DNA from: Nitrospirota bacterium | GTDB lineage: Bacteria; Nitrospirota; Thermodesulfovibrionia; Thermodesulfovibrionales; JdFR-88 | Assembly: GCA_021825295.1 (NCBI GenBank) | Contig: JAKAHV010000011.1 | Coordinates: forward strand, 17,790-81,789 | Direction: 5' to 3' | DNA length: 64,000 bases | Shown: piece by piece, positions 1 through 15,813 of the stretch | Layout: the number at the start of each line of letters is the position of its first letter | Position numbering within the stretch: position 1 is the stretch's first letter | Made by a program: the position numbers and the translations under genes | Notes under the pieces: generated by a model | Seen by the model: only the letters and a program-made list of their open reading frames with translations | The model's database searches: none | What the model was told of the DNA's origin: nothing

Positions 1-671
1 CGGAGCTGAATGTAATGTCCCATCTGACCTGCATAGGGGCCACAACCGCGTCCATAACTTCCATACTCGAAGACTACGGGGCAAACGGCATAGACAACAT
101 ACTTGCACTCCGGGGGGACCCGCCCAGGAACATGAAGGGCTTTGACCTTACAAAAGGCGAGTTCAGATATGCCAGGGACCTGGTGGAGTTCATAAGGAAG
201 CGCTACGGCGATTATTTCTCCATAGGCGTCGCGGCATATCCCGAGAAGCACCCGGAGGCGCCCTCGCTCGAAAAAGACATCGAATACCTGAAGATGAAGG
301 CCGACGCCGGTGCCGACTTCGCCATCACCCAGATGTTCTTCGACAACGCCTATTATTATGACTTCATGGAAAGGGCGCTGAAGCACGGAATCGACATACC
401 CATCCTGCCCGGCATCATGCCCATCACGGACTTCAACAAGATAAAGGAGTTCTGCTCCTTCTGCAACGCGAGCATCCCGGAGAGCCTGGAGAAGAAGATG
501 CTGCCTGTCCTGGACAGTCCGGAGGGCATAAGGAAAACCGGCACGGAGCATGTGGGCGCGCAGTGCGAGGACCTGATCAGAAACGGGGTCAGGTACCTGC
601 ACTTCTATACCCTAAACCGGGCGGATACTATAAGCGATATTCTGGACCCGCTGAAAGACCTGCTCAAATAA
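1..671 (+). CDS. metF: Methylenetetrahydrofolate reductase, 3' part (5' end outside window)
   Basis: The frame is open from the window edge to TAA 669-671. Translation carries HLTCIG, ILALRGDPP, AAYPEKHPEA, DFAITQMFFD, PGIMPI and RYLHFYTLN, the MetF/MTHFR barrel pattern as I recognise it. Confidence 0.85.
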   Translation, partial: ELNVMSHLTCIGATTASITSILEDYGANGIDNILALRGDPPRNMKGFDLTKGEFRYARDLVEFIRKRYGDYFSIGVAAYPEKHPEAPSLEKDIEYLKMKADAGADFAITQMFFDNAYYYDFMERALKHGIDIPILPGIMPITDFNKIKEFCSFCNASIPESLEKKMLPVLDSPEGIRKTGTEHVGAQCEDLIRNGVRYLHFYTLNRADTISDILDPLKDLLK

Positions 672-1276: not shown

Positions 1277-1291
1277 TGGCATGGCAATTGC
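1277..1291 (+). promoter_or_regulatory. Candidate sigma-54 (-24/-12) promoter TGGCATGGCAATTGC
   Basis: Matches TGGCAC-N5-TTGC with GG and GC spaced 10 nt. The C of the -12 GC lies 13 nt before ATG 1305. The identical 15-mer recurs at 57997-58011. Confidence 0.5.
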
Positions 1292-1304
1292 AATTACAGT
1301 GTGC

Positions 1305-1631
1305 ATGAGAAAGATCCTTTTCTGCACGCATGATCCCATCCTTGTCAAAAGCCTTTACGGCATATTGCGCGAGGAGGGTTTCACTGTGGACATGGCCGAG
1401 CATCTTTCCCAGGCTGTGCAGATGGCAATTGAAGGAAAGTACGAGGGGGTCATAATCGATTCGGGGCCGTTCGGGCTCCAGGCGGAGGATGCGGTCCGGA
1501 TAATAAAGGTGGTTTCTCCCGGGCTGCCGGTGCTGGTGACCGGGAAGTCCTGCTGCGAGGCGGATGCCCTGAACATCGAAGCCCCGGTTGACCTCGAGGA
1601 GTTCAAGCAGGCAATACACGCCATTTTATAG
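1305..1631 (+). CDS. Stand-alone CheY-like receiver domain protein, atypical (pseudo-receiver?)
   Basis: 108 aa with a receiver-like layout: KILFCTHDP, GVIIDSG, VLVTGKS, APVDLEEF. The acidic pair reads HD rather than DD, and the conserved Lys position before Pro reads Ala. ATG 1305 has no Shine-Dalgarno; ATG 1281 lies inside the promoter motif. Confidence 0.6.
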   Translation: MRKILFCTHDPILVKSLYGILREEGFTVDMAEHLSQAVQMAIEGKYEGVIIDSGPFGLQAEDAVRIIKVVSPGLPVLVTGKSCCEADALNIEAPVDLEEFKQAIHAIL

Positions 1632-1661
1632 CGTCTATAAAAAAAACAAAAAGGGGGCGTC

Positions 1662-2690
1662 ATGACACCACGGGAGACGATATTAAAGGCATTTGAAGGC
1701 GGCAAGGCCTCACGGGTCCCGGTCACGCTTTTCGGGGCCGGCATGTGGAGCATAAAAAACTACGGCTCCACTTTTAAAGAGCTATCGGAGGATGAAATCC
1801 GTATGGCCGACATGCTGGTTGCGATGTCCGGGAAACTCGGATGCGACGTCGTTTATGCGGGTTCGGGTTATAACAACTTCCACGCCGCGGCCCTGGGCGG
1901 CTCCATGAAGTTCCGGGAAATGGGAGCCCCGGACCTTGAGGCCCCGCTGGTGCACTCCGAAGAGGACCTGCAGAAGATGGACATCCGCCGCATAGATATG
2001 GACCGGGTGATCGAGACCACCAAGAAGGCCTGCAGGCTGGCGAAATCGAAGATAGGGGGCGAATACGTCGTGACGCTCACGGCATGGGGGCCGTTCACCC
2101 TGGGCGCGCGTTTGGTCGGAGAGGAGGCCATGATGAAGGCCACCTTCAAAAAGCCCGCCTTCGTCGAGAAGGTGGTCGATTTCGCCACGAGCCTGCTTAT
2201 TCATCTCTATGAGCCGCTCGTTGACGACGGTACGCTCGAAGTCATAAGCCTGGCCGACCCGACCGCCTCCGGAGACCTCATCTCCAAAAAGCAGTTCGAA
2301 CGCTTCGCGCTCCCATACCTGAAGAAGTTCACGGACTGGGCAAAGGGCAAGGGCGCACACACGCTTGTGCATATCTGCGGCAACACGACGGACCGGCTGG
2401 ACCTTTTCCCGGCTACGGGGGCGAGCTGCATAAGCCTGGACCACAAGACCGACATCGGAAAGGCCAGGGAGGTGCTCCACGGCAGGATGTGTTTCGGGGG
2501 CAACGTGGACCCGGTGAAGATAATGCTGAACGGCAGCGTGCGCGAAGTGGAGGAGACCTGCAAAGAAACCATCCGGACCGCCGGCGCCGATGGGGGGTTT
2601 GTACTCATGCCCGGCTGCGACATCCCGCCCACCGTACCGTACGAAAACATACAGAAGATGATCCAGGTGGCCCGGGAATGGAGATATTAG
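1662..2690 (+). CDS. URO-D/MtaA/CmuA-family corrinoid methyltransferase, paralog 1
   Basis: 342 aa. The N-terminus PRETILKAFEGG..RVPV is typical of MtaA-like proteins. It has H-x-C (LVHICGN) plus a distal Cys (MPGCDIPP), the family zinc-ligand pattern. RBS AAGGGGG lies upstream. Confidence 0.8.
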   Translation: MTPRETILKAFEGGKASRVPVTLFGAGMWSIKNYGSTFKELSEDEIRMADMLVAMSGKLGCDVVYAGSGYNNFHAAALGGSMKFREMGAPDLEAPLVHSEEDLQKMDIRRIDMDRVIETTKKACRLAKSKIGGEYVVTLTAWGPFTLGARLVGEEAMMKATFKKPAFVEKVVDFATSLLIHLYEPLVDDGTLEVISLADPTASGDLISKKQFERFALPYLKKFTDWAKGKGAHTLVHICGNTTDRLDLFPATGASCISLDHKTDIGKAREVLHGRMCFGGNVDPVKIMLNGSVREVEETCKETIRTAGADGGFVLMPGCDIPPTVPYENIQKMIQVAREWRY

Positions 2691-2848
2691 CAAAAGGGGG
2701 GAGGTGATAAAGCCCGTCCAGAGGGAGAATGCGGGGGGAGAAAAAAACCGGATCGAATGTTTTGATTTGAGGGGAGGTTCAAAAGCGTATGTTCAAAAAA
2801 CTGTCCGCGATGTTTTCAAAAACAAGGGGACAAGAAGGAGAAAGGAAA

Positions 2849-3298
2849 ATGGCCACAGAGTCGAAGAAGATGACGGTTGAGGAAGTAAACGCGTACATGA
2901 AGCAGAAGTGCGGCTTCGTGCCCCGGATGTTCCAGATAATAAACACCGTCACGCCGGAGCCTGGAAGGACGTTTGCCGATTTCTATGAGAGCATATTCGG
3001 CGACGGCGCGCTCTCCAGAAAGCACAAGGAGCTCATGTTCATGTCCGGGGGTGTCGCCTACTGCTCGCCCAGGTGCATAATCCACGTCGTCCCGGCCATA
3101 AACGCCGGGGCCACGACCGGTGAGATCTTTGAGGCGGCCTCCGTGGGCATGATACTGGCGGGCTTTGTCCCGGGCGGACCCGGGATACCCTATGCGTTCG
3201 AATACGCTCTGAAATGCCTTGACATCGAGGCCAAGTACAGGAAGGGCGAGAAATGGGAATACCTGCCCCAGCCCAGGTTCGACCACGGGGTGTTTTGA
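2849..3298 (+). CDS. AhpD/carboxymuconolactone-decarboxylase-family protein
   Basis: KELMFMSGGVAYCSPRCIIHV fits the AhpD-like helical core but with C-x3-C-x2-H spacing. I chose ATG 2849 as the start (AAGGAG 8 nt upstream); ATG 2789 is possible. Confidence 0.65.
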   Translation: MATESKKMTVEEVNAYMKQKCGFVPRMFQIINTVTPEPGRTFADFYESIFGDGALSRKHKELMFMSGGVAYCSPRCIIHVVPAINAGATTGEIFEAASVGMILAGFVPGGPGIPYAFEYALKCLDIEAKYRKGEKWEYLPQPRFDHGVF

Positions 3299-3331
3299 GG
3301 AAAAGGAATTTACCGGCGGGAAAAATTAAAA

Positions 3332-3366
3332 AATTCCCCCACCCCTTTCAGGCGGGTGGGGGAATT
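3332..3366. other. 13-bp perfect GC-rich hairpin inside the operon
   Basis: AATTCCCCCACCC (3332-3344) pairs with GGGTGGGGGAATT (3354-3366) around a 9-nt loop. An A-run lies upstream on the + strand, so the structure looks like an intrinsic terminator only when read on the - strand. Confidence 0.5.
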
Positions 3367-3409
3367 CCCGGAAAACACGGAGATTTTTAGAAAAGGAGAT
3401 TTCATATAA

Positions 3410-4357
3410 ATGTTCGGTTTTTCCGCCAGACAGAAGACCGCCAGGATAGGCGGCATAACGATAGGCGGGCCCGCGGGCGAAAACCCGCCCCTGCTTATCG
3501 CCTCCATGTTCCACAACAAGGACCGGATACTGGCCGACAGAAAGGGCAATTTCGACCGGCAAAGGGCAAAGGAGCTGATAAGGCAGCAGGAGGACCTCAC
3601 GAGGTCCACCGGCATCCCCGGAATGGTGGCGATGGTGGCAAACACCCCCGAAGAGGCAAAGATATATATAGATTTCCTCCTCGAAACCTCCGATATGCCC
3701 TTCGGCATAGACATGTGGGTGGCCGAACAGAGGGCGAAGGCCACGGAGTATGTCGCCAGGCTCGGTGTTCAGGACAGGTTCCTCTACAACAGCATCACCC
3801 CCTGGGACAAGGACATCCGGGGGCAGATAAACAAGCTGAAGGACCTCGGCATCAAAAACGTCGTGGTGCAGGCCTTCGACGACAAGGACCAGAGCCCCGC
3901 GGGCAGGCTGAAATCCCTTGAGTCCATACTCTCGCAGGGCGCAGACGCCTTCGATACCGTCATGGTGGACACCTCCGTCATGAATCTGCCCTCGACGTCC
4001 TTTTCGCTCGTGGCAAACAGGATGATAAAGGAGAAGCTCGGGCTGCCCTGCGGAGGGGCCTACTCCAACGGCACTCATATGTGGAAGGCGTCAAAAGACA
4101 TCTGGGGGATCGAGGGTTTCCGGACGATGGACGCCGTGGCGCAGGGCATGTCCTCCGTCCTCTGGAGCGATTTCAATTTTTACGGGCCGATCGTCACGGC
4201 CCCCAGGATATTCTCCGCGGTGGCCACGGCCCACATACTGCTTGCGACACTCGTGTTCACGGAGACAAACAGGATCCCCGAAAACGGGGACCTGCCCATA
4301 AGGAAATTCTTCCCGGATTTCGTGGAAAAGCTCCTCGCCGGAGGGGCCAGAAAGTAA
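3410..4357 (+). CDS. MtrH-family methyl-pterin:corrinoid methyltransferase
   Basis: 315 aa. The N-terminus IGGITIGGPAGENPPLLIASMFH matches the MtrH pattern (IGG..GG..GE.P..LI.S.F). AAGGAG RBS present. Confidence 0.75.
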   Translation: MFGFSARQKTARIGGITIGGPAGENPPLLIASMFHNKDRILADRKGNFDRQRAKELIRQQEDLTRSTGIPGMVAMVANTPEEAKIYIDFLLETSDMPFGIDMWVAEQRAKATEYVARLGVQDRFLYNSITPWDKDIRGQINKLKDLGIKNVVVQAFDDKDQSPAGRLKSLESILSQGADAFDTVMVDTSVMNLPSTSFSLVANRMIKEKLGLPCGGAYSNGTHMWKASKDIWGIEGFRTMDAVAQGMSSVLWSDFNFYGPIVTAPRIFSAVATAHILLATLVFTETNRIPENGDLPIRKFFPDFVEKLLAGGARK

Positions 4358-4380
4358 TAAATGCATAAAAAGGAGCGCTA

Positions 4381-5418
4381 ATGGCTGAGACTAGGACAAT
4401 GACACCGAGGGAAAGGGTCCTGAAGATGTTTTCGGGGGCCGAAGTGGACAGGCCGCCGTGCTTCAGCGGCATGGGCAATGTCACCACGGCCGGGTTAAAG
4501 AATTTCGGCTATAAATTCGCCGCCCTCCATTCAAACGCAAGGATGATGGCGGACGCGGCCGCGGCCACTTACAAGCTGACGGGTTTCGAGTGCGGGGTAG
4601 TCCCCTTCGACCTCTGCGTGGAGGCGGAGGCCCTGGGGTGCGAGATAAACGTCTATGCCCATCTGGAGGACATCCTCTACCCGACCATAAGAAAAAAGAT
4701 CATCCACAATGAGGCCGGGATGGAGACAGTCAGCATCCCGGCGGACTTTGCCGGCAGGGGGAGGATACCCCTCGTAAAGGAGGCGATAAGGCTGCTGAAG
4801 GCCGGCATCGGGGGCGAGGTCGCAATCGGCTCGTATGTGCTGGGCCCCTTCACGCTCGCGGGCCAGATAATGGAGCTCAATGACCTCCTGAAACTCTCCT
4901 TCAAGAAGCCGGAGAAAGTGGGCAGGCTCCTTGAGATGCTGGCGGAGGCGATATCGCTCTATATCCGCGAGCTTGAGGATGCCGGGGCGGATTACATCAC
5001 TGTGAGGGAGATGGGGGCCACCTCGGACGTGCTTAGTCCCAGGGTCTTCAAAAACCTCATCCTGCCCCATCTGAAGAAGATATTCAGCCGGACAAGGGCG
5101 CACACGGTCCTGCACATCTGCGGAAAGACAAACGACATAGCCGTCTCCATGACGGAGTCCGGCGCCGGCGCGATCAGCGTGGACCAGAAAAACGACGTGG
5201 CCGAGACCAGGAAAAAGATCGGCAGCGCCCTGCTCTTCGGCAATTACGACCCTTACAACGTCCTTGTGGCAGGCACTGAAGAGGCGGTGCGCCAGGCGGT
5301 CAGGAAGTGCATGGATGACGGGGTGGACGCAGTATGGCCAGGCTGCGATATATGGCCCACCGTGCCGGTGGAAAATATAAAGGCCATGATGGATGAAGTG
5401 ATAAATTACAGGAGGTAG
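4381..5418 (+). CDS. URO-D/MtaA/CmuA-family corrinoid methyltransferase, paralog 2
   Basis: 345 aa with PRERVLKMFSG..VDRPP, VLHICGK (H-x-C) and WPGCDIWP. The stop lies 2 nt before the corrinoid protein start. Confidence 0.8.
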   Translation: MAETRTMTPRERVLKMFSGAEVDRPPCFSGMGNVTTAGLKNFGYKFAALHSNARMMADAAAATYKLTGFECGVVPFDLCVEAEALGCEINVYAHLEDILYPTIRKKIIHNEAGMETVSIPADFAGRGRIPLVKEAIRLLKAGIGGEVAIGSYVLGPFTLAGQIMELNDLLKLSFKKPEKVGRLLEMLAEAISLYIRELEDAGADYITVREMGATSDVLSPRVFKNLILPHLKKIFSRTRAHTVLHICGKTNDIAVSMTESGAGAISVDQKNDVAETRKKIGSALLFGNYDPYNVLVAGTEEAVRQAVRKCMDDGVDAVWPGCDIWPTVPVENIKAMMDEVINYRR

Positions 5419-5420
5419 AC

Positions 5421-6113
5421 ATGGTTACGGAAGAAAAAAGGCAAGAACTTTTAAACAGGCTGAAAAACTCCGTCATCCAGTACGACGAGGACGGGGCCAA
5501 GGAGGCCTCGAACGAGGTCGTCGCCCTGGGGATGGACGCCAACGACGCCATCTTCAACGGCCTCGTCAGCGGGATGGAGGAGGTAGGCAGGCTCTTCGAG
5601 GCCCAGGAGTACTTCGTGCCCGAACTCCTGATGTCGGCCGACGCGCTTTACGCGGGGCTGGATATCCTGAAACCCCATGTGAAACAACTGGACCTGGGGG
5701 TGAAGGGCTCGGTCGTCATCGGCACGGTCGAGGGAGACGTCCACGACATAGGCAAGAACATCGTGAAGATGATGTTCGACGTGGCCGGCTTCACGGTATA
5801 CGATCTGGGCCGGGACGTGCCCCTGGACAAGTTCGTGGAGGAGCAGCTCCGCACGGACTCCGACCTTGTCTGCCTGTCGGCCATGATGACCACCACGATG
5901 GTGGGCATGAAAAAGGTGATAAGCGACCTGAAGGCGAAAAACCCGAACGTCAGGATCATGATAGGCGGCGCGCCGGTCTCCTCGGACATAGCCGGCAAGT
6001 GGGGTGCCGACGGCTACGCCAAGGACGCCAACAACGCCCTCAAGGACGCCATCAACATGGTCAGCTCCCTCAAGAAGATGAAGGAAGAGGCCGAGGCGAA
6101 GAAGCGGGGCTAG
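5421..6113 (+). CDS. Corrinoid (B12-binding) methyl-carrier protein
   Basis: Helical cap plus Rossmann B12 domain. DVHDIGKN (DxHxxG), SAMMTTT and IMIGGAP are present. Confidence 0.9.
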   Translation: MVTEEKRQELLNRLKNSVIQYDEDGAKEASNEVVALGMDANDAIFNGLVSGMEEVGRLFEAQEYFVPELLMSADALYAGLDILKPHVKQLDLGVKGSVVIGTVEGDVHDIGKNIVKMMFDVAGFTVYDLGRDVPLDKFVEEQLRTDSDLVCLSAMMTTTMVGMKKVISDLKAKNPNVRIMIGGAPVSSDIAGKWGADGYAKDANNALKDAINMVSSLKKMKEEAEAKKRG

Positions 6114-6123
6114 GAAACTCAGG

Positions 6124-6783
6124 ATGAATTTTCATTCCGGTTTGAGGGTGGAGCTTATCGGCGCAGGGGCGGCCGTGGTGGGGTTTGCCTGCGTGAAGGA
6201 AGTAACAAGCGGGGACATCTCTCATCTTGAGCGCGCAATCTCCATAGGCGTGGTCAAGAACCTCAATGAACGGACGGTCCGCCTGCTTGTCGCACTCGAA
6301 AAAAGGGCCGCCCGGCGGCTGAGGGAGAGAGGCTACAGGTATTTGTGCATCCCGCCTGACTCCGACAGGGCCAACGGCACATTCATATCGAAACTCTATC
6401 CGCTCATTACCCACAAGATGGCGGCAACCCTCTCCGGACTGGGCTGGATAGGCAGAAACGGGCTCCTGATAAACCCGGTGTACGGGCCGCGGCTGTCTTT
6501 TGCCACGGTGCTTACTGACGCGCCGCTTCAGACCGGCACGCCGGTCACCGGCAGCAAGTGCGGGGGATGCACGCTGTGCATGGATTTCTGCCCCTCGCAC
6601 GCGATTACGGGAAACGAGTGGTCGCAGGGCGTCCCCTATGCGGACCTTGTCCGGACAAAAAAATGCTCGTCCTGGAAGGAAGGCATCCGGGCCACAAGCG
6701 GCAAGCCCAACTGCGGCCTCTGCATCAATATCTGCCCCTACGGCAGAAACGCTGCGTCAGCTTTAAAGGATAGAATTCATTGA
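6124..6783 (+). CDS. QueG/reductive-dehalogenase-like 2x[4Fe-4S] protein (short form)
   Basis: HKMAATLSGLGWIGRNGLLINPVYGPRLSFATVLTDAPL resembles the QueG/RdhA core. Two Cys clusters are present: CGGCTLCMDFCP and CGLCINICP. Confidence 0.6.
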   Translation: MNFHSGLRVELIGAGAAVVGFACVKEVTSGDISHLERAISIGVVKNLNERTVRLLVALEKRAARRLRERGYRYLCIPPDSDRANGTFISKLYPLITHKMAATLSGLGWIGRNGLLINPVYGPRLSFATVLTDAPLQTGTPVTGSKCGGCTLCMDFCPSHAITGNEWSQGVPYADLVRTKKCSSWKEGIRATSGKPNCGLCINICPYGRNAASALKDRIH

Positions 6784-6801
6784 TGGAGGAATCTTAAGAG
6801 A

Positions 6802-8778
6802 ATGACCAGGCACAGAGTGATTTTTCAGCCCTCCGGCAGGAGGGGCGAGGTAGAAGACGGCACGAACCTTCTGGATGCCGCCCGCAACCTCGGGGTTGAC
6901 ATAGAGTCGATCTGCGGCGGCAAGGGCACCTGCGGCAAATGCAAGGTAAGGGTGGAGGAGGGTTTTTTTGAGAAGGACTCGATGGACTCCAGAATGGGCC
7001 ACCTCTCCCCGCTTACCGGCCAGGAGATGAAATTCCTGAAACCCTCGGACGGACCGGCCATGAGGCTTGCCTGCGCGGCGCAGGTGCACGGAGACGTGAA
7101 GATATTCGTCCCGGAGAAGTCCAGGGCCGGCAAGCAGATCGTGAGAAAAGCTGCAAAGGAGCTGAGCATCGCGGTGGAGCCGGCCGTGAGGAAATATTTC
7201 GTGGAACTGGCAAAGCCGTCCCTCAATGAGCCCATCACGGGGGATTTCGAAAGGCTCCGCGAGGCCCTCCGCAGGCAGGCGGGCGTCGACGCCCTTTCCA
7301 TGGATTTCCCGGTGCTCAGGGACCTCCAGGACGCAATCAGGAAAGGCAACTGGGGCGTTACCGTCACCCTCTGGAAGGGCCGTGAGATAATAAAAGTGGA
7401 GCCGGGCTTCGTGGAGGCGGCCTACGGGCTTGCCGTGGACGTGGGGACCACTACGGTCGTGGGCTATCTTACCGATCTTGCCACGGGAAAGGTCGTAAAC
7501 ACCGGGTCCATGATGAACCCGCAGGTCCCCTACGGCGAGGACGTGATGTCCCGGATCACCTACGCCATGACTAACGAAGGCGGCGTCCAGAGGATGCAGA
7601 AGGCGATAATCGACGGCCTGAACGAGATCATCGCCAATGTGACAAAGGACCTCAGGATAAACGGCGGGGCCTCCGGCGGGGAGGCGATAGTCGACCTGAC
7701 AATCGTCTTCAATACCGCCATGCACCACATATTCCTCGGCTTCAACCCGGAGCACATCGGGCGTTCCCCCTTCATCCCGGCCATTCAGCACGGCATCGGC
7801 ATAAAGGCAAGGGACCTGGGGATAAAGATAAACCCGGGCTCCTACATATACGTGCTGCCGATAGAGGCGGGATTCGTGGGCGCCGACAACGTGGGGGTGC
7901 TGATCGCGGAGGAGCCCTACAACATGGACGAAAACGTCCTTATCATAGACATAGGCACAAACGGCGAGCTGCTGCTTGGCAACAGGACGCGGGTCTGCTC
8001 CACGTCCTGCGCGACCGGGCCCGCCTTCGAGGGCGCGCAGATAAAGATGGGCATGCGCGCCGCGCCGGGCGCGATTGAGAAGGTGAGGATAGACCCGGCA
8101 ACCAAGGAGCCCCTCTACAAGGTGATCGGCAAGGAGGACTGGCACACGCGCGTGGAGAAGATAGACGCCAAGGGGATATGCGGCTCCGGCATCATAGACG
8201 CCATTGCCGAGATGTACAAGGCGGGCATAATAGACAAATCCGGGAAGTTCGACATGACGGTGAAGAACCGCCGTGTGCGAAGGGACCACGACGGGAAACC
8301 GGAATACGTGCTTGCCTGGGCCGGCGAGACATCCATCGGAACGGACATAACCATAAACCAGGGGGACGTACGGGCCCTGCAGCTTGCGAAGGCGGCGCTC
8401 TACGCCGGGGCGAAGCTCATGATGCAGAAGATGGGCATGGAGAAACTGGACAAGGTGATACTGGCCGGGGCCTTCGGCAGCTACATAGACAAGGAAGCGG
8501 CGATGACACTGGGGATGTTCCCCGACTGCGAAATCGACAAGGTCTACGCGGTCGGCAACGCGGCCGGCGACGGCGCGAGGATGGCCCTCCTGAACACCTC
8601 GAAGAGGGACGAGGCCGAGCAAAGGGCCAGGTGGGTGGAGTTCGTGGAGATAGCCGTAGAGCCGAACTTCGAGCGGGAGTTCATGCAGGCCATGCACCTG
8701 CCCCATATGAAGGACCGTTTCCCGAACTTAAAGAAGCTGCTCGAAAAGGCCGCCTCCCCGGTGGTGATAAATGGATAG
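6802..8778 (+). CDS. Reductive activase of corrinoid enzymes (RACE/COG3894 type; 2Fe-2S ferredoxin + ASKHA ATPase)
   Basis: N-terminal plant-type ferredoxin motif CGGKGTCGKCKV. ASKHA motifs are GLAVDVGTTTVVG, IDIGTNGE and GICGSGIIDA. Confidence 0.85.
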   Translation: MTRHRVIFQPSGRRGEVEDGTNLLDAARNLGVDIESICGGKGTCGKCKVRVEEGFFEKDSMDSRMGHLSPLTGQEMKFLKPSDGPAMRLACAAQVHGDVKIFVPEKSRAGKQIVRKAAKELSIAVEPAVRKYFVELAKPSLNEPITGDFERLREALRRQAGVDALSMDFPVLRDLQDAIRKGNWGVTVTLWKGREIIKVEPGFVEAAYGLAVDVGTTTVVGYLTDLATGKVVNTGSMMNPQVPYGEDVMSRITYAMTNEGGVQRMQKAIIDGLNEIIANVTKDLRINGGASGGEAIVDLTIVFNTAMHHIFLGFNPEHIGRSPFIPAIQHGIGIKARDLGIKINPGSYIYVLPIEAGFVGADNVGVLIAEEPYNMDENVLIIDIGTNGELLLGNRTRVCSTSCATGPAFEGAQIKMGMRAAPGAIEKVRIDPATKEPLYKVIGKEDWHTRVEKIDAKGICGSGIIDAIAEMYKAGIIDKSGKFDMTVKNRRVRRDHDGKPEYVLAWAGETSIGTDITINQGDVRALQLAKAALYAGAKLMMQKMGMEKLDKVILAGAFGSYIDKEAAMTLGMFPDCEIDKVYAVGNAAGDGARMALLNTSKRDEAEQRARWVEFVEIAVEPNFEREFMQAMHLPHMKDRFPNLKKLLEKAASPVVING

Positions 8779-8799
8779 CGGAACAGGACGGTTTTTGAG

Positions 8800-9114
8800 A
8801 TGACCAGGCTCAAAGTGAATTCAGGCGCATGCGGATTCATCTCCAGCGTAACGGTGGAGAAGGAAAAGGGAAAGAACGTCTCCGTGCGGATAGAGACGGA
8901 CTGTGAGATGGTGAGGAATCTGGGCCCGGAGATAGCCAGTCTCGAGATCATGAGCGTGGCCTTCACGAATTTCCTCAACAACCCGGTCTACAAGGCCGCC
9001 GCAAAACATCTCAGGCACGTGGCATGCCCCGTGCCCTGCGCGGTTATAAAAGCCGTCGAGGTTGAGTCGGGGTTTTGCCTGCCGCGCGACGTAAGCATGA
9101 CATTCGAAAAATAA
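8800..9114 (+). CDS. Small cysteine-containing hypothetical protein
   Basis: 104 aa with Cys in SGACGF, ETDCEM, VACPVPCAV and GFCLP. It lies between the RACE gene and folD on the same strand. I do not recognise the family. Confidence 0.5.
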   Translation: MTRLKVNSGACGFISSVTVEKEKGKNVSVRIETDCEMVRNLGPEIASLEIMSVAFTNFLNNPVYKAAAKHLRHVACPVPCAVIKAVEVESGFCLPRDVSMTFEK

Positions 9115-9184
9115 GTTTTTTTGGGGCGGCGGAGGGGGAAAAAGGAGATTTTTGATTGATTATGCGAAACCGGAGGCGGAAAGG

Positions 9185-10072
9185 ATGACCCGGGAAGCGG
9201 CAGCGACAATCGTGATGGACGGCAGGGGGCTTGCCGAGGAGATTAAAAAAGAGGTCGCGGCAGGCGTGCGGGAACTGGGGAATTCCGGCATCGATGCCGG
9301 TCTTGCCCTGCTTCTTGTGGGGGGCAACCCCGCCTCGAAGCAGTATTTTCTTGCCACAAAAAAGGCCGCAAAAAAGGCAGGCATAACCATCTATGAGTAC
9401 GTCCTGCCGGCCGATGCGTCAATGGGCGAGATACTTAACATAGTGAATTCGGTCAACCGCGATGAACGGATAAGCGGGCTCCTGCCGCTCATGCCGTTTC
9501 CAAGGAGGATCGACACCAGGCGGGTCGTAAACGCCATATCGCCCGGCAAGGACGTGGACGGACTGGGGGCGATCTCCATAGGCAGGCTCCAGGCGGACGA
9601 GCCCACTATCTTCGTTCCCTGCACTCCCTTTGGGGTAATAAGGCTGCTGGACCACTACGGCATAAACATCCGGGGCAAAAACGCGGTCGTGGTGGGCAAA
9701 AGCCTGGCTGTGGGAAAGCCCCTGGCCAACATGCTGCTTGCAAGGGAGGCCACTGTGACGGTCTGCCACAAGCAGACGCGGGACCTGGCCTTTTTCACCG
9801 GCGCCGCCGATATAGTCTGCTCCGCCACGGGTGTTAAAAACCTGATCAGCGGCCGGATGATAAAAGAGGGGGCCGTGGTGGTCGACATAGGCATAAACGT
9901 GCTGGCGGACGGCGGCATCGTGGGGGATGTCGATTTCGGCAGCGCCATGGGAAAGGCGGGATACCTGACCCCCGTGCCGGGCGGCGTGGGGCCGGTGACG
10001 ATAGCGATGCTCCTTGAAAACACCCTGAAATCGGCAAAGCGGAATGAAAACTCACAGGGGGCCCTGCCTTGA
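9185..10072 (+). CDS. folD: Bifunctional methylene-THF dehydrogenase / methenyl-THF cyclohydrolase
   Basis: IVMDGRGLAEEIKKEV, LLLVGGNPASKQY, GKNAVVVGKSLAVGKPLANMLL and PVPGGVGPVTIAMLLENT. ATG 9185 is preceded by GGAGG; the upstream TTG 9152 is also possible. Confidence 0.9.
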   Translation: MTREAAATIVMDGRGLAEEIKKEVAAGVRELGNSGIDAGLALLLVGGNPASKQYFLATKKAAKKAGITIYEYVLPADASMGEILNIVNSVNRDERISGLLPLMPFPRRIDTRRVVNAISPGKDVDGLGAISIGRLQADEPTIFVPCTPFGVIRLLDHYGINIRGKNAVVVGKSLAVGKPLANMLLAREATVTVCHKQTRDLAFFTGAADIVCSATGVKNLISGRMIKEGAVVVDIGINVLADGGIVGDVDFGSAMGKAGYLTPVPGGVGPVTIAMLLENTLKSAKRNENSQGALP

Positions 10073-10809
10073 CCGGAAAATTTCTCTTGCCCGGGAAATT
10101 CCTTGCCGTGGCCGCCTGGGCCGCTTACACGATTTTTTTTGTGAGGGTGGTGGCGCACGTGGCACTCTGGTTCAAAAGGCCCTGGCGCGGCGCCGCAGCG
10201 GGAATGCCCCCGGAGGATGTGAAATTAAAGCTCCCCGTCCTGCCCGTGATTGCGCCGGCTGCCCTTGAGGCGCTTTTTTTAAGGAGGCTCCTCAAGGCAA
10301 ACCCTGTCCTGTGGATTGGCGAGTGGGTCTTCCACATGAGCTTCGTCCTGGTGCTCCTGCGGCATCTGAGGTATTTTCTGACGCCCGTGCCGGAGTTCAT
10401 CTGGCGGATGCAGTTGCCCGGAAGGATCGCAGGCTATATCATGCCCTTCTCCCTTCTTTATATAATCATTGTAAAGGCAGTCGCGGGCAAAAGCAGATAC
10501 GCGTTTGGCTACAACTATTTTCTCCTTGTAACCCTTCTGCTCATCAGCGGGCTTGGCGTTCTCATGAGCACGGTCTTTCACCCGAACATCGTCGCCGTAA
10601 AGGAGTACATGATGAGCGCGCTCAGACTAAAGGCGGCGGCCTCCGTGGCGGCGGCCTGGAGCCTGCCCGGCGGCCTGCCGTTTCTCGCCCATTTCACCCT
10701 TGCGCTCGTACTGCTTGTTTACCTGCCCACTCACATATTTGCGGCCCCTTTCACGCTCTACGAGGCGAAGAAACGCGAGAAGACGCTGGGGAGGATTTTG
10801 CATGACTGA
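10069..10809 (+). CDS. NarI/HdrE/DsrM-type di-heme-b membrane subunit
   Basis: Multiple hydrophobic helices with His pairs in WVFHMSFVLVLLRHLRYF and LAHFTLALVLLVYLPTHIF. The TTG start overlaps the folD TGA (TTGA, 10069-10072). Confidence 0.65.
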   Translation: MTGKFLLPGKFLAVAAWAAYTIFFVRVVAHVALWFKRPWRGAAAGMPPEDVKLKLPVLPVIAPAALEALFLRRLLKANPVLWIGEWVFHMSFVLVLLRHLRYFLTPVPEFIWRMQLPGRIAGYIMPFSLLYIIIVKAVAGKSRYAFGYNYFLLVTLLLISGLGVLMSTVFHPNIVAVKEYMMSALRLKAAASVAAAWSLPGGLPFLAHFTLALVLLVYLPTHIFAAPFTLYEAKKREKTLGRILHD

Positions 10810-10842
10810 AGGGTTGAATAAACATTTCTCCGCCCTGAGTGA

Positions 10843-10881
10843 AACCCTCTCCCTAAAAAGGGAGAGGGTTGGGAGCGGGTG
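10843..10881. repeat. CCCTCTCCC/GGGAGAGGG hairpin repeat, copy 1 (inverted orientation)
   Basis: AACCCTCTCCC-TAAAAA-GGGAGAGGGTT followed by GGGAGCGGGTG. Same family as 15775-15813 and 49529-49577. Confidence 0.7.
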
Positions 10882-10901
10882 CAATATTGGCAGAGGGCTT
10901 T

Positions 10902-12113
10902 ATGCCTGAAAGTGAATCCTTCACCAGGTGCCTCTCGGCCGGCCAGCTCGTGGAGCTTGATGCCTGCGCCAGGTGCGGCGAATGCCTGAAATACTGCCCC
11001 GTGCAGGAGGTGACGTCGGACAAGTCCATATCGCCGCCGGAGAAAATCCGCCTCTTCAGGGAATTCATCGCGAATACGGAGGGCCTCAAATCGAAATTTT
11101 TCGGTCCGGGGAAGATAGACAGGAGGCTCCTTGAGGATTTCGCGAAGGCCGTCTATGAATGCACGACCTGCGGGGCGTGCGGGCAGGCATGCACCGTCGG
11201 CATATTCACCCAGAGGCTTTGGCCGATGCTCAGACGCGAGATGGTCAGGCGCGGGCTTGGTCCTTTTGGCAGCCAGCGCGAGACGCCGGCCGCGGTGGAA
11301 AAGACCGGCAACCCGTACGGGAAACCGGCCGGGGAGAGGTTTTCATCCTGGCTGCCGGCAGGGCTGAAGATCGCCGGGAGGGCAAAACTCGGCTATTACG
11401 CCGGATGCACAGGGGCCTATGAGGCGCAGCCGATGGTCAGGGGCGACGTGGAGGTGCTTGGAAAAATCGGCGAGCCTTTCACGATGCTGGATGCGGAGGA
11501 GGAGGCCTGCTGCGGTTTCCCGCTTTTCATAACCGGGCAATTCGAGCTGCTCGAGGGGCTGGTAAAAAGGCTGGTTGACGCCTATGCCCGAAGAGGGGTC
11601 GAGACGCTCGTCTGCTCATGTCCCTGCTGCGTCAATATGATGTCGAGGGACTGGCCCCCGTTCTACGGCGCGAAACTGCCCTTCAGGATAAGGCACATCA
11701 CCCAGTATGTGGCCGCCGCGCTCGACGGGGGAAGGCTGCGGATAAGCGGCGGCACCGGGGAAACACTGATCTATCACGACCCCTGTTATCTGTCTCGCGG
11801 GGTGGGCATCACGGAGGAGCCGCGGTCGATATTGCGCCGCATCCCGGGGGCGAATCTGCTTGAGTTCGACAGGCACGGGGCGCAGTCGCGCTGCTGCGGG
11901 GCGGGGGGCGCCGCCAGGAAGGTCTTTCACGACAACGCAATCGCCATCGCAAGGCTCTCGATCGATGAGGCCCGCCGCAAGGGGGCCCACAGGCTGGTGC
12001 TCAGTTGCCCGGCCTGTTATTCGAAGGTGGGCGAGGCGATGGCCGGCTATGGGGAAAATGAAAGGCATATCCGGATTGTCGACATAATGGAGCTTCTGTC
12101 GGGGGTAATATGA
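10902..12113 (+). CDS. HdrD/DsrK/GlpC-type Fe-S disulfide reductase subunit (2x[4Fe-4S] + 2 CCG domains)
   Basis: CARCGECLKYCP, CTTCGACGQAC, EEACCGFP...CSCPCC and SRCCGAGG...SCPAC. I chose ATG 10902 because TTG 10869 lies inside the hairpin repeat. Confidence 0.8.
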   Translation: MPESESFTRCLSAGQLVELDACARCGECLKYCPVQEVTSDKSISPPEKIRLFREFIANTEGLKSKFFGPGKIDRRLLEDFAKAVYECTTCGACGQACTVGIFTQRLWPMLRREMVRRGLGPFGSQRETPAAVEKTGNPYGKPAGERFSSWLPAGLKIAGRAKLGYYAGCTGAYEAQPMVRGDVEVLGKIGEPFTMLDAEEEACCGFPLFITGQFELLEGLVKRLVDAYARRGVETLVCSCPCCVNMMSRDWPPFYGAKLPFRIRHITQYVAAALDGGRLRISGGTGETLIYHDPCYLSRGVGITEEPRSILRRIPGANLLEFDRHGAQSRCCGAGGAARKVFHDNAIAIARLSIDEARRKGAHRLVLSCPACYSKVGEAMAGYGENERHIRIVDIMELLSGVI

Positions 12114-13366
12114 GCCACTTCACCATCGCGTGCAGGAAATGCGGCAAGGAGCTTGAGGACGCCTACTGCGCCTTTTGCGAACATTGCGCAAACGCCCTAC
12201 TCGTGACGAGATACAGGGAGAAGAAGTTCAGGGAAGAGGCGGCGGAGGGCATCTGGAGATTTTCCAACTGGCTGCCGGTCCACAAGGCCGCCTTCCCGCA
12301 GCCCTCTCCCATAGTGTTCCGATCCGAGGGGTTTGCCGGAAAGATCGGCCTTGAGGAGCTTTACGTCGTTTTTTGCGGTTACTGGCCCGAAAGGGGCGCA
12401 AATCTTCTGACCTGCACCTTCAAGGAGTTCGAGGCGGCCACCGTCATCGCAAACGCGATGGAAAACCATATAGACGGGCTTGTAGTGGCCTCGGCGGGCA
12501 ACACCGCCAGGGCCTTTACCCATCTCTCATCGGTCTCCGGCTTTCAGGCTGTTATAATAGTCCCCACGATGTGCCTTGGCGAGATGTGGAACCTGGAGGA
12601 GAAGCCCTCAGCCCCGACCATCGCGCTTTCGGACGGCGACTATTCGGACTCGATAGCCGCCGCAAGGCGGATATCGAGTCTTTCGGGCATGCCCTTCGAG
12701 GGCGGGGTAAAGAACATCGCCAAAAGAGACGGCCTCGGCATCGCCCTCCTGGAGGCCGTTGCCTGCATGAAGAAGCTCCCCCGCCATTATTTCCAGGCTG
12801 TGGGCAGCGGGGCCGGCGCAATAGCCACATGGGAGATGTCTGAAAGGTTTTTGGGCGACGGCAGGTTCGGCTCCGTGCCGCCCGCCCTGCACCTGGCCCA
12901 GAACCTGCCCTTCGCCCCGATGACGAAGGCGTACCTGAAGAAAAGCCGGGAAATCTTCGAGGAGGACCTGGACCCGGAACTCATTGGGGAGATCACCACC
13001 AGGGTGCTTTCGAACCGTTATCCGGCATACGGAGTTTCAGGGGGCGTCTTCGACGCCCTTGAGGCAACCGGCGGCTCGATGTACGGGGTCACAAACAGCG
13101 AGGTATACCGCGCGATGGAGATGTTCGAGGCCGCCGAGGGGATCGACATAGTGCCGGCCGCCGGAGTGGCCGCGGCCGCTTTAATACAGGCTGTGCGGCA
13201 GGGGAAGATACGCCCCGATGAGCCGGTGCTGCTGAATATAACCGGCGGCGGAGAGAAGCGGCTTCTTGAAGACAGGCAGGCGCACCGGGTGGACCCGGTG
13301 GTCATATCCAAAAAAATAACGGACGAGGAGATAAGGGAACTGCTGTGCTCGCTGAAGAAAAACTGA
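12110..13366 (+). CDS. Threonine-synthase-fold PLP enzyme, best fit cysteate synthase family
   Basis: N-terminal zinc ribbon (CRKCG...CAFCEHC), GYWPERGANLLTCTFKEFEA (putative PLP Lys), ASAGNTARAF, HYFQAVGSGAGA, DGRFG and QNLPFAPM. The ATG overlaps the upstream stop (ATGA, 12110-12113). Confidence 0.6.
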   Translation: MSHFTIACRKCGKELEDAYCAFCEHCANALLVTRYREKKFREEAAEGIWRFSNWLPVHKAAFPQPSPIVFRSEGFAGKIGLEELYVVFCGYWPERGANLLTCTFKEFEAATVIANAMENHIDGLVVASAGNTARAFTHLSSVSGFQAVIIVPTMCLGEMWNLEEKPSAPTIALSDGDYSDSIAAARRISSLSGMPFEGGVKNIAKRDGLGIALLEAVACMKKLPRHYFQAVGSGAGAIATWEMSERFLGDGRFGSVPPALHLAQNLPFAPMTKAYLKKSREIFEEDLDPELIGEITTRVLSNRYPAYGVSGGVFDALEATGGSMYGVTNSEVYRAMEMFEAAEGIDIVPAAGVAAAALIQAVRQGKIRPDEPVLLNITGGGEKRLLEDRQAHRVDPVVISKKITDEEIRELLCSLKKN

Positions 13367-14553: not shown

Positions 14554-15052
14554 AAACCTTGATGTTCTTCAGGGAGCTCGGGTCCGCCTTCGCGGGATGG
14601 CACATCGCGCAGAAATTCTGCATCTTCGCCCCGCCGGCCGTGTCTACCCTGAGGTACTTGTAATTCGGGTTGGACGGATGGGGGTCATGGCAGCTTACGC
14701 ATTCCAGTTTCCCGTCCCTTAAATCCCATGCCGGCACCTTTGCCACCTTCGGGTTCGGCACTACGTCAAAAGGATGGCTGTGCTCGGGGGAAATGGGATC
14801 TATGCCCATCCCGCCGTTGTTCGGCGTCTGATGGCAGCCGAGGCACAGGGCGGTCACGCCCGAGTAGGGGCGCTTCGTCCTGGGATTGATGAGCTTGCTG
14901 TTGGGCTTCACCGCGAAGATCAACTGGCCCTTCGCCTTGTGGATCGAATGGCAGCCGGTGCACGAGAGGTCGTCATGAGGGCCGAAGGCAAAGGCGTAAG
15001 CGGGCAAGACAAGCAGAAGAAACGAGACAATAAGAACTCTGAACCAGGACAT
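14528..15052 (-). CDS. Tetraheme c-type cytochrome, secreted
   Basis: Four CXXCH motifs (CTGCH, CLGCH, CVSCH, CAMCH). Signal peptide MSWFRVLIVSFLLLVLPAYAFA. AGGAGG sits 6 nt upstream of ATG 15052. The 3' end overlaps the comDE-like gene by 26 nt in convergent orientation. Confidence 0.85.
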   Translation of the reverse strand: MSWFRVLIVSFLLLVLPAYAFAFGPHDDLSCTGCHSIHKAKGQLIFAVKPNSKLINPRTKRPYSGVTALCLGCHQTPNNGGMGIDPISPEHSHPFDVVPNPKVAKVPAWDLRDGKLECVSCHDPHPSNPNYKYLRVDTAGGAKMQNFCAMCHPAKADPSSLKNIKVFSSMDENK

Positions 15053-15086
15053 GATTTTCCCTCCTTGAAAGATTTTGATTTTAAAA

Positions 15087-15115
15087 AGAATACGTATTTC
15101 AAGGGGTTTTGTCAA
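15087..15115 (-). promoter_or_regulatory. Candidate sigma-70 promoter for the tetraheme cytochrome gene
   Basis: On the minus strand: TTGACA (15115-15110), a 17-nt spacer, then TATTCT (15092-15087). Confidence 0.35.
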
Positions 15116-15766: not shown

Positions 15767-15774
15767 GATCTGAA

Positions 15775-15813
15775 CACCCTCTCCCAACCCTCTCCCCCCA
15801 GGGGAAAGGGTTT
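15775..15813. repeat. CCCTCTCCC/GGGAGAGGG hairpin repeat, copy 2
   Basis: CACCCTCTCCCAACCCTCTCCCC-CCA-GGGGAAAGGGTT, lying between two minus-strand genes. Confidence 0.7.

Follow-up and report, generated by a model that had tools for sequence, protein, structure and literature searches.

Close to one end of a 64,000-nucleotide stretch of genome from a Nitrospirota bacterium of the sulfate-reducer type (Thermodesulfovibrionales, JdFR-88; NCBI GenBank assembly GCA_021825295.1, contig JAKAHV010000011.1, positions 17,790 to 81,789; hereafter the window) lies a string of plus-strand genes that is predicted to form one sigma54-driven operon (positions 1277-14553). Genes were called from the open reading frame (ORF) listing of the window and from Pfam and NCBIfam profile scans (Table 1). 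The encoded proteins combine a corrinoid-dependent methyl-transfer set, which comprises two URO-D-family paralogs (UroD1 and UroD2) and an MtrH-family enzyme, with a membrane-linked pair resembling the heterodisulfide reductase HdrDE and with two enzymes associated with the biosynthesis of coenzyme M (CoM; 2-mercaptoethanesulfonate). This combination suggests that cofactor chemistry held to be typical of methane-producing archaea may also run in bacteria unable to make methane.

Table 1. Features of the predicted operon and its upstream region, with positions in the window and the profile or motif evidence for each.
Feature	Position	Strand	Evidence
MetF (methylene-tetrahydrofolate reductase), 5'-cut by the window edge	15..671	+	PF02219 2e-78; TIGR00676 265 bits
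Sigma54-type promoter TGGCAT-N5-TTGCA (-24/-12 boxes), TGGCATGGCAATTGCA	1277..1292	+	motif search
CheY-like single-domain receiver protein	1305..1631	+	Response_reg match weak, 18 bits
UroD1, divergent MtaA/Mlp-like zinc corrinoid methyltransferase	1662..2690	+	PF01208 5e-59
CMD/AhpD-like small protein	2849..3298	+	PF02627 3e-6
MtrH-family methylcorrinoid:pterin (tetrahydrofolate) methyltransferase	3410..4357	+	PF02007 1e-50; NF002142 331 bits, cutoff 287
UroD2, MtaA-like methylcorrinoid:thiol methyltransferase (proposed CoM methyltransferase)	4381..5418	+	PF01208 2e-73
Corrinoid carrier protein (B12-binding_2 + B12-binding)	5421..6113	+	PF02310, PF02607; DVHDIG
Mini QueG/reductive-dehalogenase-like protein, two [4Fe-4S] motifs, 219 aa	6124..6783	+	RDH 1e-16, QueG 8e-15
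RACo/RACE-type ATP-dependent reductive activase	6802..8778	+	Fer2, RACo_linker, RACo_middle, RACo_C_ter
DUF6951 small Cys3His protein	8800..9114	+	PF22263 6e-33
FolD (methylene-tetrahydrofolate dehydrogenase/cyclohydrolase)	9185..10072	+	PF02882, PF00763
HdrE/DsrM/NarI-like membrane di-heme cytochrome b	10069..10809	+	DsrM match weak, 1e-11
HdrD-like iron-sulfur protein, two [4Fe-4S] motifs + two CCG domains	10902..12113	+	PF02754 2e-24
Cysteate synthase	12110..13366	+	TIGR03844 468 bits, cutoff 325
Fused sulfopyruvate decarboxylase ComDE, last operon gene	13345..14553	+	TIGR03845, TIGR03846

The first-pass annotation of this DNA had placed two URO-D paralogs, an MtrH-like methyltransferase, a corrinoid protein, a RACE-type activase, and FolD at positions 1305-10072, with MetF upstream; all these genes were found on the plus strand with short gaps, and Pfam and NCBIfam matches confirmed their families. 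Its account of the set as complete and ending at 10072 had to be extended in both respects, because it omitted four interleaved genes (encoding the CheY-like, CMD/AhpD-like, QueG/reductive-dehalogenase-like, and DUF6951 proteins) and because the string runs on through the genes for the HdrE-like and HdrD-like proteins, cysteate synthase, and ComDE. The junctions of the four genes after folD measure -4, 92, -4, and -22 nt; the hdrE-like start overlaps the folD stop by 4 nt, and the cysteate synthase start overlaps the hdrD-like stop by 4 nt. No convincing plus-strand terminator was found within 1662-14553, and the 3' end of the operon is bounded by a convergent cytochrome gene (14528-15115). 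A GC-rich hairpin with a 14-bp stem and a T-rich tail on the minus strand (14385-14415), located within the 3' end of the ComDE frame, is probably the terminator of this cytochrome gene and overlaps the end of the operon.

At the 5' end, the longest ORF of the CheY-like protein starts at 1281, which falls within the promoter, so that the methionine at 1305 is the likelier start. MetF is indeed the upstream neighbor, but the intervening gap of 609 nt contains the sigma54-type promoter; the gene therefore lies upstream of the operon and outside it, not immediately adjacent as had been claimed. The full-length MetF (292 aa) is present on the source contig (L001; metagenome-assembled genome (MAG) GCA_027348725.1 at NCBI), which extends past the window edge; there, the genes for a GAF/PAS histidine kinase and a sigma54 activator closely precede MetF. 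An identical 15-mer comprising the sigma54-type box (TGGCATGGCAATTGC) occurs at 1277-1291 and again at 57997-58011, about 140 nt upstream of a gene for a 1154-aa hybrid histidine kinase (58148-61612) with an N-terminal phosphonate-type periplasmic binding domain.

The operon is widespread among Nitrospirota of the subsurface, groundwater, and soil. A scan of one genome per species yielded 182 matches, which include two complete chromosome records and belong nearly all to Nitrospirota/Thermodesulfovibrionia, and the same gene order recurs in an independent metagenome scan. Synteny analysis by tblastn recovered a constant order of the genes for the CheY-like protein, UroD1, CMD, MtrH, UroD2, the corrinoid protein, the QueG-like protein, RACo, and DUF6951. 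Among the 32 loci with at least 3.3 kb of sequence after DUF6951, 29 continue with the HdrE/HdrD-like pair and/or cysteate synthase (with or without ComDE), whereas FolD follows DUF6951 in just 9, and MetF is located upstream of UroD1 in just 13 of 63 related loci. Because of this distribution, the conserved wiring of the operon is that to the HdrDE-like pair and the CoM-type genes and not to the tetrahydrofolate (THF) oxidation branch, to which the first-pass annotation had connected it; FolD is a lineage-specific insert. The regulatory region is also shared: 86 of 137 related loci carry the motif TGGCAY-N5-TTGC in the 800 bp before UroD1, mostly at positions -373 to -418 (window copy at -385), against a background rate of 0.05 per kb. 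An ortholog of the sigma54 activator is encoded upstream in 30 of 75 loci, and the CheY-like gene holds its position in most related loci (33-59% identity).

Several loci depart from the common arrangement. In a Nitrospirota MAG (L086, 11695-13071), an insertion that consists of a HicB-type antitoxin gene flanked by small ORFs separates the hdrE-like from the hdrD-like gene in an otherwise intact operon. In another locus (L014, 4137-7374), the genes next to UroD1 are those for ComDE and, before it, a cysteate synthase shortened at the N terminus; all genes from CMD through hdrD are missing, which reflects either a deletion variant or a misassembly. A second type of locus combines UroD1 (70-73% identity) with CMD (L135 at 5325-12157, L131, L134, L143, L146, L157, L161, and L165). 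In L135, the only locus of this type that was examined, UroD1 and CMD are accompanied by genes for DsrE-like and OsmC proteins and by a cytochrome b/HdrD-like pair in divergent orientation, and neither the corrinoid protein nor MtrH or UroD2 is encoded nearby.

The last two genes of the operon are predicted to belong to the Methanosarcinales-type pathway of CoM biosynthesis, whose first step is the formation of cysteate from phosphoserine and sulfite by cysteate synthase; ComDE converts sulfopyruvate to sulfoacetaldehyde. Models of threonine synthase reach at most 73 bits with the cysteate synthase. ComDE exceeds the cutoff of the alpha-subunit model (TIGR03845, 181.5 bits, cutoff 148), remains below that of the beta-subunit model (TIGR03846, 200.7 bits, cutoff 221.5), and scores 194 bits with the model for phosphonopyruvate decarboxylase (cutoff 312). 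NCBI names the gene sulfopyruvate decarboxylase subunit alpha and annotates the parts of the operon individually.

In the adjoining cytochrome b, four histidine residues (H89, H99, H208, and H222) are invariant; its counterpart in the Chloroflexota-type loci described below matches the Pfam family Nitrate_red_gam. The protein reaches only 44 bits with DsrM (cutoff 300), and a PDB search gave no match. In the HdrD-like protein, every cysteine of the ferredoxin and CCG motifs, and nearly all cysteines overall, are invariant among 61 distinct sequences. Its best curated match is the HdrD-like part of TfrB, a subunit of the CoM/CoB-oxidizing thiol:fumarate reductase (1e-44, 153 bits, cutoff 385), followed at a distance by DsrK (3e-20, 72 bits, cutoff 400), and its matches in the PDB are just an unnamed 1042-aa reductase and HdrB.

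The link to CoM is most evident in three contigs from outside the Nitrospirota, which carry homologous modules with 38-70% identity where matched. Two of them (L088 and L090, the latter the same contig as L168) are labeled Chloroflexota through protein clusters, and the third (L094) is an unlabeled metagenome contig, whose UroD1-like protein is 72% identical to its counterpart in L088. The shared modules consist of UroD1-like protein, CMD, DUF6951, and RACo on the one hand and of MtrH, UroD2-like protein, and corrinoid protein on the other. The CMD of L088 is 70% identical to that of the window; the CMD of L090 gave no BLASTP match to the latter. In L088, the genes encode, in this order, CMD, UroD1-like protein, DUF6951, RACo, a sulfonate ABC transporter assigned to the SsuA family by NCBIfam, MtrH fused to UroD2, corrinoid protein, a NarI-like cytochrome b, and an HdrD-like protein. 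The fusion of the MtrH and UroD2 orthologs in one 664-aa protein argues that the two may work as a pair on one corrinoid protein. L094 has the same layout, with an NMT1-type ABC importer (assigned by Pfam alone) in the same position between RACo and MtrH. In L090/L168, the complete bacterial CoM pathway (xcbBCDE; defined in PMC9457059) is encoded directly upstream on the same strand, with scores above cutoff for ComA/XcbB (302 bits, cutoff 280) and XcbD (659 bits, cutoff 600). Homologous methyltransferase sets thus appear to be linked to three unrelated sources of a C2 thiol-sulfonate: cysteate synthase plus ComDE, xcbBCDE, and import. It is mainly because three different routes of CoM supply adjoin these methyltransferases that CoM is proposed as their thiol partner, and this convergence is the strongest evidence for a CoM-dependent function.

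The two URO-D paralogs were placed by their scores against curated hidden Markov models and by PDB searches. The possibility that they are true uroporphyrinogen decarboxylases (HemE) is ruled out by their scores with the hemE equivalog model (TIGR01464; UroD1 63 bits, UroD2 74 bits, cutoff 303), and the best PDB relative of both is MtaA (4ay7), which matches UroD2 over its full length with 2e-50 and UroD1 with 3e-25. UroD2 exceeds the cutoffs of TIGR01463 (247 bits, cutoff 235) and of PRK06252 'methylcobalamin:CoM MT' (275 bits, cutoff 244); UroD1 remains below every cutoff of the MtaA family (TIGR01463, 187 bits). The zinc ligands are invariant in both proteins (H237, C239, and C319 in 21 UroD1 orthologs, within the motifs HICG at residues 237-240 and GCD at 318-320; H245, C247, and C322 in 96 distinct UroD2 sequences). 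Such a His-Cys-Cys triad is typical of S- and Se-methyltransferases, whereas O-demethylases have one cysteine replaced by a carboxylate (PMC10418091). The analogy to the substrate-specific methyltransferases of O-demethylases drawn in the first-pass annotation is therefore disfavored by the retention of both cysteine ligands and by the weak match of UroD1 to the O-demethylase CdmB (9rui, 24.6 bits), which is absent among the PDB matches of UroD2. Its statement that genes of the MtaB, MtmB, MtbB, or MttB type are lacking holds for all window ORFs scanned, none of which has a Pfam or NCBIfam match to these families; because no such substrate enzyme is present, the substrate side must fall to a URO-D paralog, for which UroD1 is the candidate.

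UroD1 forms one tight family in an exhaustive search of representative sequences. Its homologs (77-92% identity) fill more than 120 protein clusters (at 90% identity) that are assigned to Nitrospirota or Thermodesulfovibrionales wherever they are named, and in protein searches with UroD1 and RdhL, Nitrospirota orthologs saturated the matches listed. The nearest outsiders (38-48% identity) are labeled Chloroflexota where named. Relatives with 39-42% identity are found in Mlp-type clusters together with Mar-like nitrogenase homologs or genes of sulfur metabolism. In one such cluster (L091, 11061-14791), a UroD1 relative (39% identity) is located beside two nitrogenase-like Oxidored_nitro genes, a NifH-like gene, and three URO-D genes, accompanied by a corrinoid protein, RACo, and NMT1-type transporters. 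A distant relative from a protein cluster with Tara Oceans members (L089) is solitary and not part of any gene cluster.

The remaining components of the methyl-transfer set agree with the roles assigned to them in the first-pass annotation, as domain matches identify an MtrH-family enzyme on the pterin side, a carrier with the DxHxxG loop, and a RACE-type activase. In the PDB, the MtrH-family protein has as its relatives 8z9u_B (2e-51) and MtgA, a methylcorrinoid:THF methyltransferase (6sj8, 5e-36). The corrinoid protein, which is 77-96% identical across loci, has both B12-binding domains and a DVHDIG motif at residues 106-111, and scores 200.6 bits with TIGR02370, below the cutoff of 215. In the case of RACo, the C-terminal domain (RACo_C_ter) matches with 4e-99, and an AcsV-like model matches with 2e-149.

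No other product of the operon is as conserved as the small CMD/AhpD-like protein, which reaches up to 99% identity where UroD1 is only 83% identical and whose cluster at 90% identity has 637 members. The CMD/AhpD-like protein is always paired with UroD1, even in the reduced loci that encode DsrE and a divergently oriented HdrDE-like pair, and shows weak NCBIfam matches to AhpD-domain proteins fused to arsenic/selenium methyltransferases. Residues C76 and H79 (SPRCxxH) and C123 are invariant in 107 distinct sequences; the first cysteine of the CSPRC motif is variable and replaced by asparagine in L088. The gene was also considered as a possible selenoprotein gene, which was rejected because the upstream frame contains several stop codons and offers no plausible extension.

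The mini QueG-like protein matches just the C-terminal, Fe-S-bearing halves of the reductive dehalogenase (RDH) and QueG models, and the QueG structures 5d6s and 5d08, as well as RDHs, align to its residues 92-213. A homolog of 237 aa (32% identity, 1e-35) is encoded in the Mlp/Mar cluster of L091, and the gene is absent from the Chloroflexota versions of the locus. Its AF2 model was unreliable (pLDDT 53) and was discarded. A role as the missing thiolation enzyme of the CoM pathway is not supported, because the protein is absent from some loci with cysteate synthase and ComDE, such as L016, and present in the Mlp/Mar cluster, which lacks both.

DUF6951, whose residues C11, C35, H73, and C76 are invariant, adjoins RACo also in Lucifera butyrica and in the Chloroflexota loci. 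Its AF2 model (pLDDT 80) predicts an IscU/SufE-like fold; the top Foldseek matches are almost all IscU, SufU, SufE, and CsdE, and they are weak (E values of at least 0.036, TM about 0.5). A function as CoM synthase was rejected, because DUF6951 sits beside RACo also in the Lucifera cluster, which has no CoM genes.

Taken together, the operon may encode a bacterial, sigma54-controlled system of CoM-dependent corrinoid methyl transfer that would connect methyl-THF, methyl-CoM, and a further methyl substrate of the sulfur or selenium type and would be joined to a quinone-linked disulfide reductase, an interpretation to which we assign an even chance. Cysteate synthase and ComDE would provide sulfoacetaldehyde, the immediate precursor of CoM, and the final thiolation would be catalyzed by an enzyme encoded elsewhere in the genome or proceed non-enzymatically with sulfide. 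MtrH, the corrinoid protein, and UroD2 would act as a soluble methyl-THF:CoM methyltransferase, a cytoplasmic counterpart of the Mtr complex of methanogens, in which the methyl group would be exchanged among N5-methyl-THF, Co(III)-CH3, and the zinc-activated thiolate of CoM. UroD1 and its AhpD-like partner would load or unload the same corrinoid protein with the methyl group of a second soft-nucleophile substrate, presumably a methylated sulfur or selenium compound. RACo, with DUF6951 and perhaps the mini QueG-like protein, would use ATP to restore Co(I) from inactive Co(II), and the cytochrome b/HdrD-like pair would connect the menaquinone pool with a disulfide that contains CoM. In the lineage of the window, MetF and FolD would couple the methyl-THF pool to the oxidation/reduction branch of C1 metabolism. 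In methanogens, the transfer of methyl groups from pterins to CoM releases about 30 kJ/mol, so that the thermodynamically easy direction is that towards methyl-CoM. The first-pass annotation had described a module that harvests or oxidizes methyl groups; nothing in the sequence shows the direction of flux.

A more far-reaching version, which we consider very unlikely, is that Thermodesulfovibrionia and some of the Chloroflexota-labeled MAGs run a methanogen-like methyl-CoM/heterodisulfide cycle without methyl-CoM reductase (MCR) as a hitherto unknown respiratory or energy-conserving module. The exergonic transfer of methyl groups from methyl-THF to CoM would then be tied to the quinone-linked redox conversion (reduction or oxidation) of a mixed disulfide of CoM. 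The invariant cysteine of the AhpD-like protein, a protein stand-in for coenzyme B, might provide the other half of this disulfide, and UroD1 would either set free or take up the methyl group in the form of a volatile methylated sulfur or selenium compound.

Several points weigh against a CoM-dependent function. The evidence for it is comparative throughout, and its Chloroflexota part consists of three contigs; in L090/L168, XcbC (572 bits, cutoff 575) and XcbE (406 bits, cutoff 450) score just under their cutoffs. UroD2 remains below the equivalog cutoffs of both MtaA (251 versus 400 bits) and MtbA (184 versus 600 bits). The HdrD-like protein matched no curated HdrD model, and HdrD-like CCG proteins that are paired with a cytochrome b are common in bacteria, where they act on substrates other than CoM, such as DsrC. 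To our knowledge, bacteria possess neither coenzyme B nor MCR, and the model offers neither a reaction that would consume methyl-CoM nor an origin for any heterodisulfide. Genes for CoM synthase (MMP16/ComF, COG1900) and cysteate aminotransferase were found neither in the operon nor among the other window ORFs scanned, and the sulfoacetaldehyde formed could instead feed the synthesis of taurine, isethionate, or sulfoacetate. The absence of the last step is a genuine gap; in Methanosarcina acetivorans, however, MMP16 is dispensable at sulfide concentrations of 0.4 mM or more (PMC12068725), and sulfidogenic bacteria live in sulfide. A gene for a 356-aa protein that follows ComDE in L086 was considered as a candidate for CoM synthase and discarded, as it has no counterpart in other loci.

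Among the alternatives, the one closest to the first-pass annotation invokes methylthiol enzymes of the MtsA type, which the latter had already named and which are compatible with the data. A URO-D paralog would demethylate a methyl-sulfur or methyl-selenium compound from the environment (methanethiol, dimethyl sulfide, methylmercaptopropionate, or dimethylselenide), MtrH would pass the methyl group to THF, and MetF and FolD would oxidize it; the HdrDE-like pair and the cysteate synthase/ComDE genes would serve other ends, such as the transfer of electrons from methyl-THF oxidation to menaquinone or the synthesis of a sulfonate osmolyte. The His-Cys-Cys zinc sites, the corrinoid protein, RACo, MtrH, and, in the window, the adjoining MetF and FolD are all consistent with such a route, and a quinone-linked acceptor would suit the oxidation of methyl-THF (E0' about -200 mV). 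The clusters that harbor the 39-42% identical UroD1 relatives also encode pyridoxal-phosphate enzymes of cysteine/methionine metabolism and a DMSP-lyase-like cupin, and Mlp clusters have been tied to methyl-sulfur and methyl-selenium metabolism (Kountz and Balskus, PMC10418091). We nevertheless regard this explanation as unlikely, because MetF and FolD are present in a minority of loci, whereas the HdrED-like pair and cysteate synthase-ComDE are near-constant and translationally coupled. It also leaves unexplained why a different CoM pathway or a sulfonate importer is encoded beside the same methyltransferases in two other lineages and why two thiol-type methyltransferases share one corrinoid protein. 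Moreover, moving a methyl group from a thioether onto a pterin costs about 30 kJ/mol (as in the Mtr reaction), so that a soluble system would need a pull. An origin of the methyl group in chloromethane or dichloromethane, from which a URO-D paralog would take a methyl or chloromethyl group for transfer by MtrH to THF and processing by MetF and FolD in a cmu- or mec-like manner, seems extremely improbable. The mec cassette does have a similar list of parts, with a sensor kinase and regulator, an MtaA/CmuA-family enzyme, an MtrH-family enzyme, a corrinoid protein, a RACE activase, and a DUF protein (10.1101/2021.08.30.458270), and an RDH-like Fe-S protein is present in the operon. However, the latter lacks the N-terminal half of RDH/QueG and is absent from the Chloroflexota versions, an antiporter of the mec type is not present, and dehalogenation would assign no role to the conserved partners, the genes of CoM supply and the HdrDE-like pair.

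CoM might also serve in protection rather than in methyl transfer. The operon would then be a stress or detoxification module in which CoM, whether synthesized or taken up, is a redox buffer with the HdrDE-like complex as its disulfide reductase, the AhpD-like protein (and OsmC in some loci) acts as a CoM-dependent peroxidase partner, and the corrinoid methyltransferases methylate toxic soft nucleophiles (sulfide, selenide, or arsenite, for example) or quench methylating agents. Such a role would agree with the exceptional conservation of the AhpD/CMD-like protein and its weak matches to AhpD domains fused to arsenite/selenium methyltransferases, with the OsmC genes that flank the cluster in L086 and L135, and with the predicted inducibility of the operon via sigma54 and a sensor kinase; according to the title of a recent report, overexpression of comDE guards methane-producing archaea against oxidative stress (PMC12713407). 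A redox buffer, by contrast, should be formed constitutively and would render MtrH, the corrinoid protein, and the ATP-dependent activase superfluous; the MtrH-UroD2 fusion points to a dedicated transfer of methyl groups between pterin and thiol, and the operon in the window encodes no peroxiredoxin partner, which makes a protective function quite unlikely. None of the three alternatives explains the triple linkage to CoM supply as well as the CoM-dependent model.

On balance, it is an evenly poised proposition that the operon represents a methanogen-type CoM corrinoid methyltransferase system in a bacterial setting without MCR. It resembles the soluble systems of methanogens (MtaABC, MtbA, MtsAB, and the proposed bypass of Mtr via CmtA in Methanosarcina) in the combination of an MtaA-family enzyme with a His-Cys-Cys zinc site, a DxHxxG corrinoid protein, an ATP-dependent activase, an MtrH-type pterin methyltransferase, HdrDE-type proteins, and cysteate synthase plus ComDE. 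It differs from them in its bacterial host, which has no known MCR, coenzyme B, or methanophenazine, in its activase, which is of the bacterial RACo type instead of RamA, and in its pterin, which is presumably THF because MetF and FolD adjoin. It also adds the AhpD-like, DUF6951, and mini QueG-like proteins and lacks an enzyme of the MtaB/MttB type.

Among bacterial systems, the type 1 mlp clusters are similar in architecture, with several MtaA-like 'Mlp' enzymes of the His-Cys-Cys type, a corrinoid protein, a bacterial RACE, and anaerobic hosts. They occur mostly in Firmicutes, have been tied to the use of methyl-selenides and methyl-sulfur compounds, and lack a THF methyltransferase (PMC10418091), whereas the operon encodes MtrH; the same study makes no mention of Nitrospirota, Chloroflexota, CoM biosynthesis, sulfonates, or a link to HdrDE-type proteins. 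The THF-linked systems for glycine betaine (MtgABC), O-demethylation, chloromethane (cmu), and dichloromethane (mec) share an MtrH/MtgA-type enzyme, a corrinoid protein, and RACo with the operon. Their substrate enzymes, by contrast, belong to the MttB superfamily, to URO-D types with a carboxylate-zinc site, or to the CmuA type, and none of these systems is tied to CoM synthesis or to a membrane-bound HdrDE-like complex. In cmu clusters, metF and folD are found nearby. The cytochrome b/HdrD-like pair resembles the DsrMK/HdrDE family of membrane thiol-disulfide oxidoreductases, with a di-heme NarI-like cytochrome b (four invariant histidines) and a cytoplasmic protein with two [4Fe-4S] and two CCG motifs; unlike DsrMK, from which both proteins are separated by their scores, it is encoded between FolD/DUF6951 and the CoM genes and not together with dsr genes. 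In Xanthobacter, CoM is used in alkene and epoxide metabolism (PMC9457059), and its xcbBCDE genes are shared by the Chloroflexota-labeled relative. The operon differs from this system in lacking the context of an epoxyalkane:CoM transferase, 2-KPCC, or a monooxygenase, in its anaerobic host, and in the pairing of CoM with corrinoid methyltransferases. Archaeal-type CoM genes of unassigned purpose have been reported also from other bacterial MAGs, without a link to corrinoid methyltransferases (10.1101/2021.03.22.436540).

Related Mlp clusters, the mec cassette, and the orphan CoM genes of bacterial MAGs are thus already described. In a literature search, no description was found in which MtaA-type and MtrH methyltransferases are combined with an HdrDE-like complex and CoM supply in bacteria, nor one that links Nitrospirota, Chloroflexota, cysteate synthase, or the xcb genes to clusters of the MtaA type; the coverage of the search was incomplete, and a prior description is possible. 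The CoM of archaea is regarded as a signature of methane and alkane metabolism, and the only established role of CoM in bacteria that we know of is in aerobic alkene and epoxide metabolism. The operon offers a concrete, testable answer to the question of what purpose archaeal-type CoM genes serve in bacteria. If the proposed function is correct, methyl-CoM chemistry would reach into the Bacteria, with a bearing on the spread of the methyl branch of methanogenesis and its cofactors between domains and on the turnover of methylated sulfur and selenium compounds under anaerobic conditions. Inhibitors that are applied as 'methanogen-specific', namely bromoethanesulfonate and further CoM analogues, might act on these bacteria as well, and gene surveys that take mtaA, mtrH, hdrD, or comDE as markers of methanogens would miscount.

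Roughly 1.3 kb past the operon, the minus strand encodes an orphan periplasmic binding protein of the SsuA/NMT1 family (15858-16793) without an adjoining permease or ATPase; the Chloroflexota-type clusters embed a full importer of the SsuA/NMT1 type. As stated in the first-pass annotation, the window contains genes for multiheme cytochromes (14528-15115, 53611-54612, and 56391-57764) and a bd oxidase subunit (61774-63129), and no CODH/ACS gene was found among the ORFs scanned. Four ORFs have no Pfam match (31895-34204, 39342-41195, 24140-25273, and, on the minus strand, 15185-15787; 769, 617, 377, and 200 aa, respectively), and the last of them has no NCBIfam match either. The region from 16894 to 48489 is occupied by a large island for the biosynthesis of a polysaccharide of the O-antigen type, unrelated to the operon, which encodes UDP-sugar dehydrogenases, glycosyltransferases of families GT1, GT2, and GT4, several S-adenosylmethionine-dependent methyltransferases, two DegT aminotransferases, a sulfotransferase (26225-26980), an ABC-2 exporter, an initiating transferase (Bac_transf), and a Wzy-like ligase.

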